A stretch of 31,543 bases of DNA, from assembly GCA_964509855.1 (NCBI GenBank), contig CAZDZP010000002.1:1-31543 (forward strand). The letters are read 5' to 3'. The position numbers and the translations under genes were made by a program. The number at the start of each line of letters is the position of its first letter. The stretch's first letter is position 1. Positions 21,919 through 31,543 of the stretch are shown piece by piece. Under the pieces are notes generated by a model. The model did no database searches, had not been told where the DNA came from, and saw nothing but the letters and a program-made list of their open reading frames with translations. The DNA is from an uncultured Anaerolineaceae bacterium. GTDB taxonomy: Bacteria > Chloroflexota > Dehalococcoidia > Tepidiformales > Tepidiformaceae.

Positions 21919-22475
21919 TGGGCCCGTCACCGGCCGACTTGGCCAGGTACGCGCCGCGGGATCCCGCAGGCGTTGTCGAACTGAACATTAACGATCACTG
22001 GCGTGCCAAGTGGATAGCCGATTCCGAGCTTCCCGAACACGCGCCCGTGATGACTGCATACGCGATGGTGTTTCGCGGCGAGCGCGCTTATGTCACACGC
22101 GAGCATGGCGAGGACCGCTGGAGCATCATCGAAGGTGACCTGGGCGAGAGTGAGTCGGCTGAGGACTTCGTCGTTCGCGCCGCCTTTGAGCGGACCGGGG
22201 CAAAGGTCACCAAGACCGAGCTCTTCGGCTTTTTCGAATGCAAGGCCACCAGCCAGAATCCGCAGTTCCCCGTGGGAACGATAACAGTTCAGCCGTTCTA
22301 CATCGCTTCGGCGAGCGACGTTGAAGACGTGCCGGATGAGTCAGGTTATGAACGGCGACGGCTGCCGCTGAATGAGTTCAACAAACTGATTCGTGCACGC
22401 TACCCCCAGTCCGACCTGTACCTGCAGCAGGGTACGCAGCGCTACACGGTCATGTTGGCGCGCGGCGAAGTCTAA
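21915..22475 (+). CDS. Nudix-fold protein with degenerate Nudix box
   Basis: WSIIEG-DLGES-E-SAEDFVV-RAAFERTG follows the GX5EX7REUXEEXGU spacing but lacks the key glutamates. ATGA overlap with the upstream gene. Confidence 0.65.
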   Translation: MMGPSPADLARYAPRDPAGVVELNINDHWRAKWIADSELPEHAPVMTAYAMVFRGERAYVTREHGEDRWSIIEGDLGESESAEDFVVRAAFERTGAKVTKTELFGFFECKATSQNPQFPVGTITVQPFYIASASDVEDVPDESGYERRRLPLNEFNKLIRARYPQSDLYLQQGTQRYTVMLARGEV

Positions 22476-23113
22476 GAACCCGGGGCTATCGCATAGGTCA
22501 CGGTGACGTCGCAGGTGACGGCCGTTGTGCCTGCCTCAATGGGCGTCGCCTGCTGCGACTCCATCTTCATCGCCATTGCATGCAGCATCGGTTGCGGCCC
22601 GGCTGGCTGTCCTTCGGTGATGGCAACCGGCAGCCCTAACGACACGCCTGCGTGCGAGGCGAGTTGAGCCGCTTTGGCCGCAGCATCGCCGATGGCAAGA
22701 CGGCGCGCTTCTTCCTCGGCCGCACGAGGGTCCGACACGGAGAATTGGAGCCCGTTGAGCATGACGGCGTCACCGCCCGCTTCCAGGGCACCGTCAACGA
22801 CCCCGCCGAGTTTCGCGACGTCACGAACGACCACGTGGACGATATTGGACACGTCGTACCCCAACAGCTTTTGGCCACCGTCGTGGGAGTAGTCGTAGCG
22901 GGGGCCAACGGAAAGCTGGCTTGTACGGATGTCGGCATCAGCAACGTTCTGCGATTTGATGTTCGCGATCAGTTTGCTGGCGGCCCCCGCCGCGCGGTCG
23001 CGGGCCTCGGCGACGGAACGTGCGCTGGCCTGCACGCCGATGTTCAACATGGCGATATCCGGTACGACCTGTACCTCGCCGCGCCCGGTGACCGTGATTC
23101 CCTGTTCCTGCAT
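22472..23113 (-). CDS. SIMPL-domain (DUF541/YggE-like) protein
   Basis: ITVTGRGEVQVVPDIAMLNIGVQ, DIRTSQLSVGPRYDY, GYDVSNIV, AIGDAAAKAAQLA, PIEAGTTAVTCDVTVTY. Confidence 0.9.
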   Translation of the reverse strand: MQEQGITVTGRGEVQVVPDIAMLNIGVQASARSVAEARDRAAGAASKLIANIKSQNVADADIRTSQLSVGPRYDYSHDGGQKLLGYDVSNIVHVVVRDVAKLGGVVDGALEAGGDAVMLNGLQFSVSDPRAAEEEARRLAIGDAAAKAAQLASHAGVSLGLPVAITEGQPAGPQPMLHAMAMKMESQQATPIEAGTTAVTCDVTVTYAIAPGS

Positions 23114-23136
23114 GTTGAGAAGATAGCCCCCCGGGG

Positions 23137-23829
23137 TCAGAGGCGCTGGGCGCGCTGAACCTGGTGCCGCGATACGGCCCATGCCACCACCGCTAGAGCG
23201 AACACACCCCCGAGCGCCGAGTAAACCGGCAGCAAGGAATTGGGCGAGCTTTCAGTGGCGCTGCGATGCGATTCGAGCGCCGAGATTGGCGACGCCTCGT
23301 CGACGAGTTCCTTACCGTCGCCTGCGTCGTATGCCGGGGGTTCCTCACCACCCTCGGCGGAACCGGCCATTGTGCCGGCAGCCTCTCCGCCGTCGTCGCT
23401 GGTGGTGCGCATGTCGTCGCCTTCGGCCTGGGTTTCGAGCGAAGCCATGTTGGCGCCGCCGTTATCTCCGTCGGTCGTCGTACCGACCGTATCGAAGGCG
23501 AACACAATGCCGAACGCGGCGATGGCGGCGAAGGATGTGGCCTGGGCGAGGCGCATCGTGACGGCAGGCGCGCGGGAGGGCTTCGGCGCCGGTTCGGCGA
23601 CCATCGCCGGGGTGAGTGCGAAGGAACGGGGAGTGGCGAATTCGGGCATCTCGCCAAGCGCGGACTTGAGCGACTTCGTGTTGCGAAGCAGTTCGGCGAC
23701 GCTCTCGGACTCTTCGACGCGATCTTCCAGCAGTTCCCGTTCAACGGGCGTGAGGCGATGGTCGACATAGGCATCCACCTGTCGAGCCCACCGGTCATTG
23801 CGCCTGAAGATCTTCGGGAAACGCATCAC
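23137..23829 (-). CDS. putative membrane-bound anti-sigma factor (zf-HC2-like N-terminus without Zn ligands, two predicted TM helices)
   Basis: Lies directly downstream of the ECF sigma gene. N-terminal VDAYVDHRLTPVERELLE, then PRSFALTP, a hydrophobic helix, an acidic loop and a second hydrophobic helix. Confidence 0.75.
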   Translation of the reverse strand: MMRFPKIFRRNDRWARQVDAYVDHRLTPVERELLEDRVEESESVAELLRNTKSLKSALGEMPEFATPRSFALTPAMVAEPAPKPSRAPAVTMRLAQATSFAAIAAFGIVFAFDTVGTTTDGDNGGANMASLETQAEGDDMRTTSDDGGEAAGTMAGSAEGGEEPPAYDAGDGKELVDEASPISALESHRSATESSPNSLLPVYSALGGVFALAVVAWAVSRHQVQRAQRL

Positions 23830-23837
23830 AATTCCTT

Positions 23838-24446
23838 TCAGCTATCCAGACGTTCGCGGGCGCCGAAAAGTTCCGGGTTTCTGCGAATGAGTTCACGCAG
23901 CCGCTCACGGCCGCGATGAATGCGGGACTTAATGGTACCGGTAGAGGTTTCGCAGATGCTGGCCACCTCGTCGTAGGAGTAGCCGTGGATGTCGACCAGG
24001 ACGATTGCGCGGCGCTGATCGAAGGGCAATTCCAACAGTGCGTCCTGCAATGCGCGGCTTAACGCGGCGCGTTCCACACGGGCTTCTGAAGATTCAGTTT
24101 GGTCCGGCACCTCAACAGGAGCCCCAAGTGTGTCGAATAACTCATCTAGAGAGCTTGCGCGATCCTTGCGCTGCGCTCGACGGAGGGCATCCTTGCTGTG
24201 GTTAGCCGCAATGCGGAATAGCCAGGCGCGGAAATTGCCACCTTCGAAGCGCGCAAGGGCACGATAGGCCGAAAGAAAGGTTTCCTGCGTCGCGTCTTCA
24301 GCGGATTGCCGGTTGCCAAGCAGGCGGAGCGAGAGGTTGAACACCGCAACCTGGTAGCGTTCGACAAGGCTGTTGAAGGAAGCGAGATTGCCGTTCCTGG
24401 CTTGCTGAATGAGGTCCTCATCGGGCGGTTGTCCCTGTGGATCCAC
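23838..24446 (-). CDS. ECF (sigma-70 group 4) RNA polymerase sigma factor
   Basis: Region 2 AEDATQETFLSAYRAL...FRAWLFRIAAN; region 4 LPFDQRRAIVLVDIHGYSYDEVA...GTIKSRIHRGRERL. Confidence 0.93.
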   Translation of the reverse strand: MDPQGQPPDEDLIQQARNGNLASFNSLVERYQVAVFNLSLRLLGNRQSAEDATQETFLSAYRALARFEGGNFRAWLFRIAANHSKDALRRAQRKDRASSLDELFDTLGAPVEVPDQTESSEARVERAALSRALQDALLELPFDQRRAIVLVDIHGYSYDEVASICETSTGTIKSRIHRGRERLRELIRRNPELFGARERLDS

Positions 24447-24523
24447 GGCGGCGAGAGTAGGTCAATCGGCTGTAAAGCGCGACTAATGGGAACCGGGTGC
24501 GACCCGGAGGCTGTGATACCCTG

Positions 24524-27500
24524 ATGGCAATGGACCAGGGAGGCGAACGCCTCGACGAGGCATTCGAAGACGACCACGACGCCACGCAGGACTGGTACTT
24601 TGACCTGCCCAGCGGAGCATGGGAAAGACAAGAAGAGAAGAACCGCCAGCTGCGCGCGAATCTCCTTGGTCACACCACCAAAGACACCGACACGCCGAAG
24701 GACCCCTTTACCGGGCAGCCGGTGAAGGGTGGTGGTTTCCTTGGCCGAGGGCGCAAGAAGGACAAGCCGGTCGAAGGATCGAAAAAGCCGGTCTTCGAAC
24801 GCCGGGGTAGCGACGATGAACGCGTGTCGCGTTTCCGCGCTCTCCGCGAAGGAAGTGCCCCCGAGGGCGACAGCTGGTCGACAGAGCCGAAAGCCATCGA
24901 CGAGAACGCGCCGCTGCTGCGCAACCGCCTGAGCGCTGGCGATGAGCCGCCCGCAGCATCCCCCAAGGGCGAATCGCGCTGGGACCAGCTGTTTGGTGCG
25001 CCCGCCGACAGCGGCAGCATCGTCGACGGGATGCGCAACTGGGCCACGAGTCCGAATGATGCCGACGAAGACGCCGCCGAAGATCCAGGCGCGGAGAGCA
25101 CCGCCGAACCAGTAGATGCAGTAAACACGGCTGAAGAAGCAGTCGACGCGGACACCGAGGAGAGCCTTATCGGTGCGATGCGCAACTGGGCGACGGCGCC
25201 TGCGGACGAGCATGCCCCGGATTTCGAAAAGCCCGGTTTCGAACAAGAACCCGAAGTCGAAGACGAATGGGCGGTGGTAGCGCCGTCGAATCTTGTCGAC
25301 GGCGATGTTGAACCCGCGACAGAACCCGTTAGCGTCGTCGCCGAGAGCGACCTCTCCGTGGCGGACGACGCCGCGGAATCGCTCATGGAACGTATCCGCA
25401 ACCGAGCCCGCGTCCAGGCCGAACTCGACGCTGTTCCGAGTAGTGCCGATACCGAGGACCAGTCCGAAGAAGACGTGGTTGCAATCGGGGCTGATTCATC
25501 GGCCACCGCTCTCGTTCAGGATGAGTCTGAGTACGTCGAAGCGCCGGCCGCCGAGTTAGTCGCCAGTGCCGATGATGATGAAGCCACGCGGGACCCCGAC
25601 GAGAGCCCGCTGGAAGGGCTCCGTGCGTGGGCAATGAACCGCCCATCCAGGGCCCGGTTCGCAACAGCTGAAACTACCGTTGAGGAAACCCCCGATGCGG
25701 TTTCCGGCGGCGACGACAAGGCTTCTTCAATCGACGACGTTGTGCCCGCCGCAGAGGATGTCAACAGTCCGATCGAGGTCGAAGCGGACGACAACGAGTG
25801 GAGCGCTGTCGATGTCGATGTCGACAGTGGCGCCGAGTACTCCGAAACGAAGGCTCAAGCGGAAAGCGCAAGCGCACTGGCGCGATTCACTGCTGCGCAA
25901 ACCCCAGTCGAGGATGCTGTCGGCTCTCAGGAAGAACGCGAAGACACGGCGGAGAGTGAACCCCAGGCCAAAAAGCCAGGAATCCTCGGGCGGCTGTTCG
26001 GCCGCAAGCCCAAGCCAGACCCGGCAGAGGCAGCCGGCGCCGCCGCGATTAGCGCAGCCGCATGGCTGGAAGACGAGGATCCGGGTTGGGGCATGAGCCG
26101 CTCAGCGGCCACCGGCGCCAACCTGAACGCACAGGAATCCGAATGGGAGCCGGTCGAGCATGCCGAAGGCACGTCGGCCGACGGTAAGGATTCCGGTACT
26201 CCGGTTGTCTCAGCTTTTGCGGCCGAAACGATTTCGGACATCCCGGAGACGTCCGTGCCCTCGTTCCCCGCAAGCAACGATTCGACCACCGGGAACGCCT
26301 CGCCATGGGCTTCCTCGGACATGGCGACGCAGAACGACTCCTTCGGATGGAGCGCCACTCCGGCCGGGAATGAAGCCGCCGTGCCCGAGCCAGCGGAAGA
26401 AGAGGCTGTCGCGTCCGCACCCGTTGAGGATGACGACGAGGACGCTCCCACCTGGGCTGCCCCCGACATGGCCGCCAGCAACGACTCCTTCGGGTGGTCC
26501 AAGCCAGCTGAGGAAGAGGCCAGCGCCTCCGCGCCCGTTGAGGACGAGGCTCCGCATTGGGTCGCCCCCGACATGGCTTCCAGCAACGACTCCTTCGGAT
26601 GGTCCAAGCCAGCCGAGGAAGTAGCTGTCGCTTCAGCGCTCGTTGAAGATGAAGCTGAGGACGTCCCCACCTGGGCTGCCCCTGACATGGCCGCCAGCAA
26701 CGATTCCTTCGGGTGGTCCAAGCCAGCCGAGGAAGAGGCCGGCGCTTCCGCACCCGTTGAGGACGAGGCTCCGCACTGGGCTGCCCCTGACATGGCCGCC
26801 AGCAACGATTCTTTTGGCTGGTCCGCGACGACCGAGGAAGAGTCCGACGCGTCCGCACCTGTGGAGGATGAGGCTCCGCACTGGGCTGTCCCTGACATGG
26901 CCGCCAGCAACGATTCCTTCGGATGGTCCAAGCCAGCCGAGGAAGAGGTCGGCGCCTCCGCGCCCGTTGAGGATGGGGCTCCGCATTGGGCTGCCCCCGA
27001 CATGGCTGCCAGCAACGATTCCTTTGGCTGGTCTAATCCAGCCGAGGAAGAAGCTGTCGCTTCAGCGCTCGTTGAAGATGACGACGAGGACTCTCCAAGC
27101 TGGGTCGCCCCAGACATGGCCGCCAGCAACGATTCCTTTGGCTGGTCGAAGCCAGCCGAGGAAGAAGCTGTCGCTTCAGCGCTCGTTGAAGATGAAGCTG
27201 AGGATGTCCCCACCTGGGCTGCCCCTGACATGGCCGCCAGCAACGATTCTTTTGGCTGGTCCGCGACGACCGAGGAAGAGGTCGGTGCGTCCGCGCCCGT
27301 TGAGGATGAGGCGCCGCATTGGGCTGCCCCTGACATGGCAGCGAGCAACGATTCTTTTGGCTGGTCCGCGACGACCGAGGAAGAGGTCGGTGCGTCCGCG
27401 CCCGTTGAGGATGAGGCGCCGCATTGGGCTGCCCCTGACATGGCAGCGAGCAACGACTCCTTCGGGTGGTCCGCGCCGACCGAAGAAGAGGCGCTCGCCG

Positions 27501-29755
27501 AGGCGTTGGACGAAGAACAACTGGTTGCAGATTCCGCCGTCGACGATGAAGAACCGGCGTGGTCGTTCGCCCGGCCTTCGCACGAAGAAGAGCGGTCCGG
27601 GGAAGAGGCCGATGCTTCCGCACCCGTTGAGAATGGGGCTCCACACTGGGCTGTTACCGACATGGCCGCCAGCAACGACTCGTTTGGCTGGTCCGCTGCC
27701 CAAACGGAGGACGAGGCGCTGGCTGAAGCCCTTGAGGACGAGATGCCGTTGCCCGATTCGGCCAGCATCTTCCCGTGGATGGCAACAGCACTGAGCGACG
27801 ACGCGCAGGGCCTCATTGAGAACCAGGAAGTGGCCAGCATCGAGCCGGGCGAAGCATTCAGCGAACAGGCCGCCTTCTCGCCGCTTTCGGAACAACCAAC
27901 AGAAAGTGCGCCCGAAGCGGTAACCTTCGAAGCGATGCTACCCGCTGATGACGACGCCGACGACGAATCCCAGCCTTGGGCTGCAGCTGCGATCGCCGAA
28001 AACCACGAGGCCGCAAGAGTCGATGACGGCGGTGACGAGTGGGAACCAGAGCAGGACGATGGCGTAGAGCCGGCGCCAGCAGTACCAGCCTTCGAAGCAT
28101 CGATTGCGACGCCGCAGGAATCTCCGGTGGATGACGAAGAGTCCGAATGGGATCCCGAGGGCCTGGACGAGGAACCCGTTGTCCCGGCCCCGGCTCCGGT
28201 TGCGCTGTCCACCGAACCGGTCGCAGCCTCCGCCGCAGTCGAGTTCGAAGTCGAATCAGATGACGACTCAGTTTCGCTGGACTGGGATTGGGAATCGCAG
28301 GAAGAGGGCGAGGCCAACGACGTGGTCCCCGACTGGCAGATGCAGGCTCCTCGAGAGTCCGAACCCGCCGCCGAACCGGCCCAGCTTGGTTTCGCCTTCC
28401 CGGGCGCGGGCGCCCTGGAAACGGACGAAGAGCCAGACCTCGACGCGGAAGGCCCAGTGGAGGCAACCGACCCCTCGACCAATCCTGGCGAGTTCGCTGA
28501 GGGGAGCGACTGGGAATCGGTAGCTGCCATCACGGCGGCACCCGGCGCCGCCTCACTCGAAGACGAGCAGGACGAAGAGCCAGACCTCTGGGCCGCCATC
28601 GCAGAAGAAGCTGCCCTGGAGGGCGAAGCGGGCGAAAGCCTCGTCGACGCTCCCCATGCAACCGTGTTTGGCCAGTACGGCACCCGCAGAAGCGCAAGTG
28701 AACTCCACGCTGAGTACGACCAACAGTTCGTCCCGATAGAAGCGGAAGACGGCGACATGGAAGAAGACGTGGTCCTCCGCGCTTTCGAAGCCCATGCCGC
28801 TTCCGAAGAAAACGATGGCGACGACAAGAACGAAGCCTTCGACGAATTGCTTGGCGAACACGCAGATGTTGTCGACGACGAAGAGGGGCCCGCCCCACGC
28901 GGCGGTGTCGCTCCCGTTGGTTTCGGAAGCTGGGCACCGCCTCGTGCAGTCAACGCTTTCGATGAGACCAGCGACGAATGGGAACCGGAGTCCCAACCCG
29001 TAGCCGTCGGCGCCGCCGCCCCTGCCGGTTCGGCCGAGCGCGAGTACACAAGCTACGTCGGCGACGGGTCCTCATCCGCTGCTGACGCGGCTGCAAAGCG
29101 GGCGAGTTCGCGAACCTGGGTGCGAGAACTGGTGGAGACCGGCCTGCTCGCTATCCTCGTGTTCCTCGCCGTTCGAGCCAGTTTCCAAAACTTCAAAGTC
29201 GACGGCAGCTCCATGGCGCCGACGCTTGCCGATGGCCAGTTCCTCATCGTCAACAAGTTGGTCTACAGCGAAGTGGATGTGGAAAAGCTCGGCAAGTACC
29301 TCCCGTTCGTGAGCGCTGGTGACGACCCGACCCGGCACGTCTTCCACGGACCCGAACGCGGCGACATCATCGTGCTGCGTGACCCGAGCAACCCCAGCGT
29401 GGACCTTATCAAGCGAGTCGTTGGCATGCCGGGTGACAAGCTCGAAATCGTGGACGGCGCCGTGTATATCGACGACTTCCGGCTGGAGGAGCCGTACATC
29501 AAATCGGAATGGCGGGGCAATCGCCCGGCCGTGATAGTTCCCGAAGGTCACTTTTTCGTGATGGGTGACAACCGGGACAACAGCAAGGACAGCCGAAGCA
29601 GCTCGATCGGCTTCATACCGGAAGACCTGATCATCGGGCGGGCCGAGTTCTCGTATCTGCCCTTCGACCGCTTCGGGCGCGCGCCAAATGAAACACCGAG
29701 CCTTTCCGAAACGGACGGGCGGCCGGTGCTGACGTCGCAACGTTTGGAACGCTAG
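24524..29755 (+). CDS. lepB: signal peptidase I with a ~1,530-aa acidic, repeat-containing N-terminal extension (start 24524 or 24530)
   Basis: Single uninterrupted ORF. TM segment begins ~29117 (WVRELVETGLLAILVFLAV), followed by box B DGSSMAPTL (Ser 29210-29212), RGDIIV, box D LIKRVVGMPGD (Lys 29411-29413) and box E FVMGDNRDNSKDSR. Confidence 0.9.
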   Translation: MAMDQGGERLDEAFEDDHDATQDWYFDLPSGAWERQEEKNRQLRANLLGHTTKDTDTPKDPFTGQPVKGGGFLGRGRKKDKPVEGSKKPVFERRGSDDERVSRFRALREGSAPEGDSWSTEPKAIDENAPLLRNRLSAGDEPPAASPKGESRWDQLFGAPADSGSIVDGMRNWATSPNDADEDAAEDPGAESTAEPVDAVNTAEEAVDADTEESLIGAMRNWATAPADEHAPDFEKPGFEQEPEVEDEWAVVAPSNLVDGDVEPATEPVSVVAESDLSVADDAAESLMERIRNRARVQAELDAVPSSADTEDQSEEDVVAIGADSSATALVQDESEYVEAPAAELVASADDDEATRDPDESPLEGLRAWAMNRPSRARFATAETTVEETPDAVSGGDDKASSIDDVVPAAEDVNSPIEVEADDNEWSAVDVDVDSGAEYSETKAQAESASALARFTAAQTPVEDAVGSQEEREDTAESEPQAKKPGILGRLFGRKPKPDPAEAAGAAAISAAAWLEDEDPGWGMSRSAATGANLNAQESEWEPVEHAEGTSADGKDSGTPVVSAFAAETISDIPETSVPSFPASNDSTTGNASPWASSDMATQNDSFGWSATPAGNEAAVPEPAEEEAVASAPVEDDDEDAPTWAAPDMAASNDSFGWSKPAEEEASASAPVEDEAPHWVAPDMASSNDSFGWSKPAEEVAVASALVEDEAEDVPTWAAPDMAASNDSFGWSKPAEEEAGASAPVEDEAPHWAAPDMAASNDSFGWSATTEEESDASAPVEDEAPHWAVPDMAASNDSFGWSKPAEEEVGASAPVEDGAPHWAAPDMAASNDSFGWSNPAEEEAVASALVEDDDEDSPSWVAPDMAASNDSFGWSKPAEEEAVASALVEDEAEDVPTWAAPDMAASNDSFGWSATTEEEVGASAPVEDEAPHWAAPDMAASNDSFGWSATTEEEVGASAPVEDEAPHWAAPDMAASNDSFGWSAPTEEEALAEALDEEQLVADSAVDDEEPAWSFARPSHEEERSGEEADASAPVENGAPHWAVTDMAASNDSFGWSAAQTEDEALAEALEDEMPLPDSASIFPWMATALSDDAQGLIENQEVASIEPGEAFSEQAAFSPLSEQPTESAPEAVTFEAMLPADDDADDESQPWAAAAIAENHEAARVDDGGDEWEPEQDDGVEPAPAVPAFEASIATPQESPVDDEESEWDPEGLDEEPVVPAPAPVALSTEPVAASAAVEFEVESDDDSVSLDWDWESQEEGEANDVVPDWQMQAPRESEPAAEPAQLGFAFPGAGALETDEEPDLDAEGPVEATDPSTNPGEFAEGSDWESVAAITAAPGAASLEDEQDEEPDLWAAIAEEAALEGEAGESLVDAPHATVFGQYGTRRSASELHAEYDQQFVPIEAEDGDMEEDVVLRAFEAHAASEENDGDDKNEAFDELLGEHADVVDDEEGPAPRGGVAPVGFGSWAPPRAVNAFDETSDEWEPESQPVAVGAAAPAGSAEREYTSYVGDGSSSAADAAAKRASSRTWVRELVETGLLAILVFLAVRASFQNFKVDGSSMAPTLADGQFLIVNKLVYSEVDVEKLGKYLPFVSAGDDPTRHVFHGPERGDIIVLRDPSNPSVDLIKRVVGMPGDKLEIVDGAVYIDDFRLEEPYIKSEWRGNRPAVIVPEGHFFVMGDNRDNSKDSRSSSIGFIPEDLIIGRAEFSYLPFDRFGRAPNETPSLSETDGRPVLTSQRLER
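26306..27694 (+). repeat. intragenic coding tandem repeat: 12 copies of W(A/V)(A/V)PDMAASNDSFGWS-like cores, mostly at 105/114-bp period
   Basis: Core Trp codons at 26306, 26453, 26558, 26672, 26777, 26882, 26987, 27101, 27215, 27320, 27425 and 27647; every spacing is a multiple of 3. Confidence 0.97.
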
Positions 29756-29795: not shown

Positions 29796-30353
29796 GTGGA
29801 CGACAATTTCGAAGCACTGCTCCAGGAACGCGGCGCCCTGCTGAAAGGCCATTTCCAGTTGGCCAGCGGGCGCCACGCCGACACCTACATTGAAAAGTTC
29901 CGAATTCTCCAGTGGCCCGACCTGACCGAAGCGTTCTGCAAACGTGTTGCCGAACACTTCCAAGGGCAGGCAAACATCGTGGCCGGCCCCACTACGGGCG
30001 GCATCATCCTCTCCTACGAGACGGCCAGGCACATGGGCCTCCCGAGCATCATCGCGGAATCGAAAGACGACGGCAGCGGCCGCGAATTCCGGCGTGGTTT
30101 CCAGGTGGGCGAAGGCGACCGCGTACTCGTTGTTGACGACGTACTCACCACGGGCGGCAGCATTCGCGACGTGCTCGCGGCAGTGAAGGATCGGGGTGCG
30201 ACCGTTGCTGGCGTGGGTGTGCTGGTTGACCGCGCGGGCGGCACGGTGGACTTTGGCGCACCGTTCTTCGCCTGCATGACCGTGAACGTGGCCTCGTGGG
30301 CACCCGATGAATGCGCCCTCTGCAAGGAAGGCGTCCCGCTTATCGTCACGTAA
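29796..30353 (+). CDS. pyrE: orotate phosphoribosyltransferase
   Basis: ALLKGHFQLASGRHADTYIEK, VAGPTTGGI, PRPP-binding VLVVDDVLTTGGS, VGVLVDR. Confidence 0.95.
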   Translation: MDDNFEALLQERGALLKGHFQLASGRHADTYIEKFRILQWPDLTEAFCKRVAEHFQGQANIVAGPTTGGIILSYETARHMGLPSIIAESKDDGSGREFRRGFQVGEGDRVLVVDDVLTTGGSIRDVLAAVKDRGATVAGVGVLVDRAGGTVDFGAPFFACMTVNVASWAPDECALCKEGVPLIVT

Positions 30354-30363
30354 ACGGGAATTG

Positions 30364-30393
30364 CCCGGCCCGCCGCACGACCGGCGGACCGGG
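30364..30393. terminator. GC-rich hairpin between convergent pyrE and cysteine hydrolase genes; possible bidirectional terminator
   Basis: CCCGG-C-CCGCCG / CGGCGG-A-CCGGG inverted repeat with a 6-nt loop; no U-tract on either side. Confidence 0.4.
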
Positions 30394-30408
30394 ACGAACT
30401 CGCGACCC

Positions 30409-31125
30409 TTAGGCGGTCACGAGTTCCCGCGTTGTGACGGAAGCGAAGTAGGCTTCCGCGTCCGCCAGGCTCACGACGTCCGCATACTTCTGGTGCATGT
30501 CGAAGAGGCTCATGGCGTGAGAAGCCTCCGTGCGGTCGAAGGTGCACTCCTCAACGACGCCAACCTTGTAGCGCGCGGCGCTGCCATCGACGACGGTTGC
30601 ACGAACGCACCCGCTGGTGGAGTTGCCACAGCAAATGATGGTGTCGGCGCCGAGGTCCGTCAGGTACTGGCTGAGCGGCGTACCGTTGAACATGCTGGCG
30701 GACGTCTTGGCGATGACGAACTCGCCATCCTGGGGCGCGATCTCTTCGACGATTTCGGGAAGGCGTTCTTCCATCCACGCCGGGATGAGGTCCTGCGGGC
30801 GCTCCGAGGCTTCGCCGCGAGAGCTCATGCCCCGCACCGGGAAATCGGTCCGCAGCTTGGCGTAGGCAACCGGTATGCCGTTGGCACGGGCGGAGGCTAT
30901 GAGTTGCACGGTGCGGTCAATGGCCCGCCAGCCTTCGAGGCCACAACTGGCCGCGAGTGCCCCGGCGACGTCCATGAGCGGCATGCGCGGGCCGAGAATG
31001 CTGTAGACGTTGTCGATGACCAGCAGCACTGGCTTCTCGCCGAAGCCGAACGGCGCGGGCTTCTCCCAGTACATCTTCGTGTGTTCCCTGTCGCGTTCCG
31101 TGAGGAACGAATCCCAAACTCGCAT
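30409..31125 (-). CDS. isochorismatase-family cysteine hydrolase (maleamate amidohydrolase / N-carbamoylsarcosine amidase-like)
   Basis: GFGEKPVLLVID (Asp), IAKTSASMFNGT (Lys), STSGCVRATVVD (Cys), VVEECTFDR...SLFDM..KYADV; AGGAG RBS before ATG 31125. Confidence 0.9.
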   Translation of the reverse strand: MRVWDSFLTERDREHTKMYWEKPAPFGFGEKPVLLVIDNVYSILGPRMPLMDVAGALAASCGLEGWRAIDRTVQLIASARANGIPVAYAKLRTDFPVRGMSSRGEASERPQDLIPAWMEERLPEIVEEIAPQDGEFVIAKTSASMFNGTPLSQYLTDLGADTIICCGNSTSGCVRATVVDGSAARYKVGVVEECTFDRTEASHAMSLFDMHQKYADVVSLADAEAYFASVTTRELVTA

Positions 31126-31266
31126 CAATTGACTCCTGTAGCGCTGGCGTCGCGAGCAAAGCCCGCGCCCGGCCATCCTGCCGGTGGGAGGTTTCGCCAA
31201 GGTCACAGGCGTGCAGCAGCGGTAGGCCTGCGCTGTTCACCGAAACAACCCCTGGCGTGGCCTACA

Positions 31267-31543
31267 ATGGCCAGCGTGAGATTCGTACGAAAAGCAGGCA
31301 GCGACCCGGCCTTCCTGATAAAGGCCATGAACGAGGCTTCTGGTGAGCTCCGGGAGCTGTTCTATGGTCAGCGACTGGGCACGCTGCTCGAACCCGCTGA
31401 GCCACCGGACGATGGCTGGAGCCTGATGGGCATCGCCTTCCACATGCGCAGGGTGGAAGAGGGGGTGAGCGACCAGCTCGAAAAGATGGTGCGCTATCGC
31501 GAGCCAGACATCCCGAATGTGGACATGGACGACATTCCCTTCC
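31267..31543 (+). CDS. DinB-family protein, 3'-truncated by the window (start 31267 or GTG 31276)
   Basis: Open frame to the window end: MASVRFVRKAGSDPAFLIKAMNEASGELRELF...DGWSLMGIAFHMRRVE, containing the DinB-like WS-x(6)-H motif. Confidence 0.7.
   Translation, partial: MASVRFVRKAGSDPAFLIKAMNEASGELRELFYGQRLGTLLEPAEPPDDGWSLMGIAFHMRRVEEGVSDQLEKMVRYREPDIPNVDMDDIPF

Follow-up and report, generated by a model that had tools for sequence, protein, structure and literature searches.

A type I signal peptidase with a family-specific, acidic and probably disordered cytoplasmic arm in the Tepidiformaceae

The window analyzed here is a 31,543-nt (31.5-kb) stretch of DNA from an uncultured Anaerolineaceae bacterium, assigned by GTDB to the Tepidiformaceae (Chloroflexota, Dehalococcoidia). 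It is the whole of contig CAZDZP010000002.1 in a metagenome-assembled genome (MAG; GCA_964509855.1) of 2.9 Mb that is 77% complete and distributed over 471 contigs. The window encodes a type I signal peptidase (SPase I) of unusual size. SPase I, which removes export signals from secreted proteins, is essential and well studied; it serves as an antibiotic target and is considered to be a minimal protease with a membrane anchor. The single-anchor enzymes SipS and SipT of B. subtilis and SpsB of S. aureus have short cytoplasmic N-termini. The protein in the window likewise has the S26A fold, the Ser/Lys dyad, boxes B, D and E and an N-in anchor but, unlike these enzymes, carries 1,531 residues in front of the anchor, here called the arm. 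To judge from sequence, the architecture is real and conserved, with an ordinary S26A core and an arm that is new; the literature search found no paper describing it. The new elements are the island anatomy of the arm, its family-restricted head, the existence of split versions, strain indels that keep the frame and a constant neighboring gene for an extracytoplasmic function (ECF) sigma factor. The overall reading proposed here, a signal peptidase whose family-specific disordered arm acts as a membrane-tethered scaffold, is evenly balanced between being right and being wrong.

The open reading frame and its peptidase domain

The gene and the parts of it that define the enzyme are:

24524 to 29755, plus strand: whole coding sequence, comprising the arm (aa 1-1531), a transmembrane helix and a type I signal peptidase domain; 1,743 aa, identical to database product P0002
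29129 to 29185, plus strand: single transmembrane helix, N-in by the positive-inside rule
29204 to 29596, plus strand: catalytic boxes, with Ser1563 (29210-29212), Lys1630 (29411-29413) and GDNRDNSKDSR (29564-29596)

The stop-free frame on the plus strand ends at 29755 and may start at 24497 (GTG, 1,752 aa) or at 24524 (ATG, 1,743 aa). The ATG is favored because orthologues open with M-x-M-[DE] at its position. Two orthologues have in-frame stops just 5' of the start, so that the conserved bases preceding the ATG are conserved at the DNA level and are non-coding. GC content by codon position is 0.72/0.50/0.70 along the entire arm, the same as in the neighboring genes, and a chance open frame of such length is excluded at 63% GC. 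An antisense open reading frame (ORF) of 1,040 aa (25927-29049, minus strand) has the wrong codon-position pattern and was set aside as a shadow ORF.

The catalytic end of the protein is ordinary. It matches Pfam PF10502 (Peptidase_S26; 8.9e-44, 149.8 bits against a cut-off of 22.9) and TIGR02227 (7.3e-42, 143 bits against a cut-off of 47), the S26 profile matches covering nt 29126-29656. Alignment to the E. coli LepB chains 1T7D and 1B12 places Ser1563 in GSSMAPTL, Lys1630 in DLIKRVVG and box E in GDNRDNSKDSR; E. coli LepB has its catalytic Ser90 and Lys145 at these positions. When the model of a full-length homologue was searched with Foldseek, signal peptidases were the only matches. Frame, profiles and catalytic boxes together bear out the initial annotation, which had described a single ORF of ~1,743 aa ending in a complete SPase I of ~210 aa.

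Could the joining of arm and peptidase be an artefact of assembly or gene calling that links two unrelated genes? The fragmentation of the MAG into 471 contigs speaks for it, as does the repeat block of the arm, which no unitig of the probable source run spans. However, the same fused frame recurs in a closed genome and in dozens of independent assemblies, 77 protein clusters share the design, and the junction between arm and catalytic domain at ~nt 29117 is bridged by contigs of four public runs from three studies (a stromatolite, the probable source; a hot spring; two sediments). The chance of such an artefact is negligible, and the check for an assembly fusion that the initial annotation had called for thus comes out clean. 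All kinds of public run were searched, and none of those matching the stretch is listed as RNA. Relative to strains of ~95% identity, the indels listed in the arm, once grouped, amount to +9, +6, -9, -3, +6, -12 and -3 nt, all multiples of three, which argues for selection on the reading frame of the arm.

The sole hydrophobic segment spans aa 1536-1554, with a KD19 value of 1.96 against a maximum of 1.01 within the arm, in keeping with the earlier remark that there is no second such segment. On average 4.2 Lys and Arg residues lie in the 18 residues before the hydrophobic core and 1.0 after it, and the N-terminal side exceeds the C-terminal side in 68 of 68 homologues. Given a single N-in helix, this positive-inside bias and a catalytic domain that must face outward, the arm is assigned to the cytoplasm, where the initial annotation had also placed it. 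There is little doubt that the protein is a type I signal peptidase (LepB/Sip type, S26A) with its catalytic domain outside and its arm in the cytoplasm. The anchor is predicted to present the catalytic domain on the outer face of the membrane, and the predicted activity is signal-peptide cleavage after A-x-A.

Composition, islands and repeats of the arm

The arm is rich in acidic residues, Ala, Ser and Pro and studded with Trp, as first described (D+E 24.7%, A 18.4%, S 9.6%, P 8.3%, W 3.1%), and carries a net charge of -309. FoldIndex is negative in 95% of arm windows. In an AlphaFold2 (AF2) model of an 870-aa homologue, built with a 36-sequence alignment, pLDDT lies below 50 over 565 residues; isolated helices appear at the head, MRxWA and juxtamembrane islands, and the peptidase fold is confident. 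The predictions agree with the earlier description of the arm as disordered, and intrinsic disorder is highly probable. Packing of the conserved islands into one domain was considered and rejected, the homologue model showing isolated helices only.

In a search with the whole protein, the arm has no Pfam or NCBIfam match at E<=1, and the only models matched are of the S26 type (signal peptidase I, Ni-SOD maturation protease and TraF). A profile of the head found a chance match only among PDB sequences (E=1.5), and the protein atlas gave scores of 0.70 or lower. By these searches the arm belongs to no described family. Its conservation is confined to islands: BLAST of the window arm against 76 other arms shows conservation at aa 1-180, practically none from aa ~180 to ~1350, and conservation again at aa ~1380-1470. 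The order of the islands is fixed in the alignments (head, basic segment 1, MRxWA, basic segment 2, spacer, DPW island, juxtamembrane helices). In the window, all on the plus strand, they are:

24593 to 24670: conserved N-terminal head WYFDLPSGAWERQEEKNRQLRANLLG, aa 24-49, from alignments; consensus WYFDLPxGAWERQExKNRxLR
24725 to 24766: basic amphipathic segment 1, KGGGFLGRGRKKDK; family consensus GLFGFGRKK, in the window KGGGFLGRGRKK
24974 to 25054: RWDxxF...[LIV][DE][AGS]MRxWA motif, copy 1, from motif analysis
25163 to 25201 and 25607 to 25645: further MRxWA copies, with a degenerate copy at 25379 to 25414, from motif analysis
25970 to 26017: basic amphipathic segment 2, KKPGILGRLFGRKPKP; family form GxFGRLFGR, in the window GILGRLFGRK
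26306 to 27694: twelve tandem Trp-acidic repeats of 35 or 38 aa (aa 595-1057) with the core W-x2-3-DMAASNDSFGWS; TRF period 105 nt
28583 to 28699: island DLWAAIAEEA ... VFGQYGTRRSAS, matching DPWAAFL...F.F.SDRxSRRAG-stop, the C-terminal end of separate arm proteins; family form DPWxxF...F.F..R.SRR
28760 to 28873: conserved juxtamembrane helices EEDVVLRAFEAHA and AFDELLGEHADVV, which stay on the peptidase gene in split-gene relatives; family forms DVVLRAFEAHA and LLG...

Head residues W24, F26 and L43 are invariant in the alignment, and AF2 models the head of the homologue as a 24-residue helix with block-mean pLDDT of 83-87 over most of it. The tripeptide DPF stands between the head and basic segment 1. 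The RWDxxF...MRxWA motif occurs in 74 of the 77 arms, with one to five copies each, and Met is enriched 7.9-fold at position W-3. The basic segments have helical hydrophobic moments of 0.34-0.48 against an arm background of 0.21 +/- 0.12, the value for segment 2 (0.44) lying at about the 95th percentile of arm 11-mers; the segments may bind lipid. Across 161 conserved arm columns Trp is enriched 4.2-fold, Phe and Met about 2-fold and Arg 1.6-fold, and Asp and Glu are depleted, with the proviso that MAFFT anchors disordered regions on the rare Trp residues and so inflates apparent Trp conservation. This mixture of Trp, Phe and Met with Arg suggests the kind of helix typical of interfacial or peptide-docking surfaces. 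The window protein matches the head profile at 2.4e-28 and has all islands in order. The module formed by the head, GLFGFGRKK, MRxWA and an acidic Trp-rich region at the lepB locus may provisionally be treated as a new family.

The spacer between the islands keeps its composition and length class while its sequence is not conserved, which gives its acidic repeats the look of a spacer. In the window the unit is WAAPDMAASNDSFGWS in 12 copies, a count that is uncertain, as Logan contigs of the probable source run leave nt 26493-27524 unspanned. The block is arranged differently in ~95%-identical strains. AF2 gives it a mean pLDDT of 39 and no secondary structure, which is weak evidence (a single sequence with no alignment), and a folded solenoid was rejected on that same weak ground. 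Of the 77 arms, 27 have tandem repeats in the spacer; the median distance between repeats ranges from 16 to 48 aa and is mostly 30-38 aa. The Trp-containing unit varies by lineage (EKPWWE, ERPWWE, DWASAMRGWA; ~31-42 aa), and longer arms tend to have a higher repeat content (Spearman 0.56). The repeats often break assemblies: of 58 species-representative loci (L045-L102), 23 have a contig end within the arm. A further observation is that A-S-A-P occurs eight times in the window repeats (aa 630-1031, nt ~26411-27616), resembling a signal peptidase -3/-1 site blocked by Pro at +1. A role as pseudo-substrate was dismissed, the tetrapeptides lying on the cytoplasmic, hence wrong, side of the membrane; they are probably a by-product of composition.

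Fused, split and arm-less relatives

The initial annotation knew of no family with this architecture. That statement is not borne out: at least 77 protein clusters and most of the Tepidiformaceae genomes searched have the design. The 77 clusters, found in a search for long proteins, measure 960-2,001 aa, with peptidase domains 55-78% identical, a single helix in every case, and arms with 18-30% D+E and 1.8-4.8% W. Their sources are named Tepidiformaceae, Tepidiforma sp., Candidatus Amarobacter glycogenicus and Dehalococcoidia, and all are annotated merely as 'signal peptidase I'. When 24 genomes from the family were searched, the best S26 match mostly lay within an open frame of 449-2,163 aa; G022, a closed genome of one contig, has a frame of 1,558 aa. 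The S26 frames of 16 other families in the class do not exceed 381 aa, and among the 150 matches listed from 300 Chloroflexota genomes the frames have 170-520 aa, apart from one longer frame that belongs to the same family.

The head is equally restricted. Its profile finds only 86 representatives among 1.84 billion proteins, and the best matches lie at or near the N-terminus throughout, bar one unrelated weak repeat match. That match (P0127, 889 aa, E 2.7e-09) has ~12 tandem repeats with DDYFDAASGAWDLDGL, an N-terminal hydrophobic segment and another repeat context, and its similarity to the head is probably convergent. Of 10 genomes of the family, 8 have the head, against none of 190 from other families in the class; the five genomes checked for copy number have a single copy each.

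Several head proteins without a peptidase share the C-terminus DPWAAFL...F.F.SDRxSRRAG. In at least four lineages such an arm gene stands by itself, directly upstream of the peptidase gene; examples are the genomes G002, G013 and G007 and a Logan contig. These split arm genes end in one or two stops; at three of the four junctions a Shine-Dalgarno-like run comes next, and then a start codon. In the product of the second gene of the pair, a cytoplasmic extension of ~230 aa that includes the juxtamembrane islands precedes the helix and the peptidase. The separate arm proteins retain the basic segments. By its sequence organization, the split pair is a natural 'Rosetta stone' counterpart of the fused gene. 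Programmed readthrough was considered for these relatives, three of the four junctions being in frame, but the double or repeated stops, the Shine-Dalgarno-like run and the new start codon, together with the other frame of the G007 junction, disfavor it, and the pairs are read as ordinary two-gene operons.

Among the 58 species-representative loci, 26 are fused, three are split at the conserved stop, six are frame-broken and 23 are cut by contig ends. Fused arms (n=26) have 598-1,784 aa, with a median of 1,045. Several of the six frame-broken loci resemble, by name, long-read isolate assemblies, and indel errors are suspected there. In a tree of catalytic domains the split forms nest among fused ones, and the split G002 is sister to the fused G003 (support 98/81). 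The fused or split state has probably changed more than once; most other branches nearby are weakly supported. Two relatives, the closed G021 (L040) and G011 (L042), lack the arm and have a short lepB with ~70 cytoplasmic residues at the SIMPL-lepB-pyrE locus.

Neighboring genes and possible roles of the arm

The genes around the peptidase gene stand in a conserved order, with SIMPL, anti-sigma and ECF sigma genes reading away from the divergent arm-peptidase gene, which is followed by pyrE and a 412-aa ORF:

22472 to 23182, minus strand: SIMPL/DUF541 protein, which adjoins lepB even in arm-less relatives
23137 to 23829, minus strand: candidate anti-sigma factor, 230 aa, GTG start, two hydrophobic segments
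23838 to 24446, minus strand: ECF sigma factor, divergent from the peptidase gene
29796 to 30353, plus strand: pyrE (orotate phosphoribosyltransferase), TIGR01367 above cut-off, a conserved downstream neighbor
30307 to 31542: 412-aa ORF without family match, in a conserved position after pyrE

The ECF sigma gene is divergent and within 500 nt of the head in all 56 head-bearing loci with enough flank. The N-terminal part of the anti-sigma candidate is an anti-sigma-like helix region, and its two hydrophobic segments lie on either side of an acidic loop; no NCBIfam model matches it, and an orthologue (L037) carries zf-HC2. An overlapping ORF (23193-23798) was considered as the anti-sigma gene and rejected: it lies in another frame, is rich in Arg, Pro and Ser and is probably no gene. 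In the two arm-less genomes, the sigma and anti-sigma genes are missing between SIMPL and lepB. Since these genomes cluster on the tree, the sigma linkage counts as about one event and not as 56, and is to be taken as a lead rather than as a statistic.

The 77-nt intergenic region (24447-24523) contains two DNA blocks conserved across ~12 orthologous loci. Block 1, GAGGGTAGGTCAATCGGCTGTAAAGsGCGA, abuts the sigma start codon; block 2, GGGAGGCTrTGrTAssCTGATG, ends in the peptidase ATG. Because of the in-frame stops in two orthologues, this conservation is read as regulatory (Shine-Dalgarno, promoter or leader), and the sigma and peptidase transcripts may have very short leaders. An ECF-type promoter (GGAAC) before the peptidase gene occurs in the window and two orthologues and is otherwise not conserved, and was rejected.

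Why should a signal peptidase carry such an arm? It is possible that the arm is a membrane-tethered flexible scaffold. The transmembrane helix and the two basic amphipathic segments would keep it at the inner leaflet, the islands rich in Trp and Arg would offer docking sites for the membrane or for a cytoplasmic partner, and the acidic repeats would form a spacer and polyanionic brush. Covalent linkage to the peptidase is not required, as the arm also occurs as a separate gene, and the separate arm proteins, which keep the basic segments, could reach the membrane alone. The initial annotation had proposed a scaffold or localization module that recruits partners; the docking-like motifs, the split genes and the constant ECF sigma neighbor make a partner-binding role more concrete. 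Judged from gene order, the functional context is most likely the adjacent sigma/anti-sigma pair, which would also be the preferred candidate partner, followed by parts of the Sec or signal recognition particle (SRP) machinery or the basic N-regions of signal peptides. The docking mechanism as such is tentative, its chances falling a little short of even.

Several points weigh against the scaffold reading. The AF2 model of the 870-aa homologue has no docking of one island on another, and the apparent Trp conservation is inflated by the alignment, as noted above. The idea of membrane binding draws on motif resemblance and on a moderate hydrophobic moment. Translation might also begin internally, at Met1412 (nt 28757) for instance, and give a shorter product. 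The arm-less G021 and G011 group together on the tree, so that one ancestral gain or loss may account for the sigma linkage. Finally, the closed genome G022 has a second canonical SPase I, and the giant enzyme need not be the sole housekeeping one. That second enzyme (L041; C1, ~901-903 kb) is encoded elsewhere in the genome and has a Pro-rich cytoplasmic extension of ~150 aa.

More specific roles can be drawn from the neighborhood. The locus could be a signaling device in which the peptidase makes the site-1 cut in the anti-sigma factor and the arm docks the sigma factor or the N-terminal domain of the anti-sigma factor; the state of secretion or of the envelope would then be coupled to transcription or, alternatively, the sigma factor merely controls the arm-lepB promoter. 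The sigma gene at every head-bearing locus with enough flank points this way, as do the two arm-less relatives, in which SIMPL adjoins a short lepB and neither a sigma nor an anti-sigma gene is present at the locus, the same neighborhood in split-gene versions and the conserved intergenic blocks. There is also a precedent, since signal peptidase is the site-1 protease of the anti-sigma factors RsiV and RsiP in Bacillus (PMC4183432, PMC8844934). Both cases pair a type I signal peptidase with an ECF sigma/anti-sigma system; the pairing is functional in Bacillus, whereas here it is an invariable adjacency known from synteny, and the co-occurrence may be one evolutionary event. By eye, no clear A-x-A follows the first hydrophobic segment of the anti-sigma candidate. 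The known RsiV and RsiP systems use ordinary short peptidases, which are not known to carry a cytoplasmic arm or to be encoded next to the sigma gene. Such a signaling role is unlikely, and it would be equally surprising if arm, peptidase and sigma/anti-sigma pair formed one machine in which the peptidase senses or cleaves outside the membrane and the head and MRxWA, fused or in trans, bind the sigma or anti-sigma factor.

Alternatively, the arm may be an antenna on the secretion side, comparable to the A-domain of the SRP receptor FtsY. Its basic segments would attach to lipid or to the translocon, its polyanion would draw in the basic N-regions of signal peptides or ribosome-nascent chain complexes, and the peptidase would in this way sit next to active Sec channels. 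Functionally, the nearest analogue is arguably this A-domain, which is likewise acidic, unstructured and length-variable, is flanked by basic amphipathic segments of Gly, Phe and Leu and belongs to a component of the signal-peptide pathway, which signal peptidase also serves. The window segments KGGGFLGRGRKK and GILGRLFGRK and the family form GLFGFGRKK resemble the lipid-binding motifs KKRGFFSWLGFGQKE and KEGFFARLKRS at the N-terminus and the A/N junction of E. coli FtsY, and the separate arm proteins retain these basic segments. The A-domain is variable in length and sequence, flexible and membrane-binding (PMC8082313). The likeness is one of motifs, however, and profile, PDB and atlas searches give no homology; unlike FtsY, the protein has no NG GTPase domain, only an S26 domain. 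The arm is 3-9 times longer than the A-domain, its 600-1,800 residues being far more than in any A-domain known; it is also Trp-rich and has its own conserved head and MRxWA motifs. The strict sigma neighborhood and the conserved head are left unexplained by the antenna, which is rather unlikely. A search for FtsY in the window genome gave one SRP54-family match only, in a MAG that is 77% complete.

A polar or positional scaffold of the FimV/HubP or PopZ kind, the comparison drawn by the initial annotation, would recruit or position proteins at a cell pole or the division site. These proteins share with the arm a long acidic, partly repetitive cytoplasmic region, and the repeat-bearing arm sits on a single-pass protein. 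The kinship is not borne out: LysM, FimV C-terminal and PopZ matches are all absent at E<=1, the whole protein having no Pfam or NCBIfam match beyond S26-type models. Unlike FimV/HubP, the arm has no LysM and no C-terminal FimV/TPR-like motif that could be found, and the protein ends in a different, enzymatic domain; unlike PopZ, it has no match to the PopZ domain (Pfam). Solved structures and the protein atlas gave nothing, and this role is quite improbable. Still less can be said for the arm as largely neutral baggage, a disordered region grown by repeat slippage on a protein of which the C-terminal ~330 aa matter, perhaps made from an internal start. The spacer is unconserved and varies ~3-fold in length, two family members have no arm, and the split versions show that the peptidase can be made alone. 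However, head, MRxWA, basic and juxtamembrane islands keep their order across 70 or more lineages, the composition (D+E 18-30%, W ~2-4.8%) is held in all 77 homologues, strains differ by in-frame indels only, the frame stays open for 600-1,800 codons at 63% GC, and the split arm persists as its own gene with a conserved C-terminus. Neutral baggage is thus very improbable.

Across a whole bacterial family, signal peptidase is either joined to a cytoplasmic and probably disordered polyanion of 600-1,800 residues or encoded alongside one. The fused, split and arm-less versions found in nature permit comparison; cultured Tepidiforma strains exist, and the architecture occurs in proteins recorded under the name Tepidiforma sp. 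Should the arm bind partners or control the sigma factor, protein export would be coupled to gene control in a new way, and the arm would be a natural bacterial case of short linear motifs set in a very long disordered region that is tethered to the membrane.

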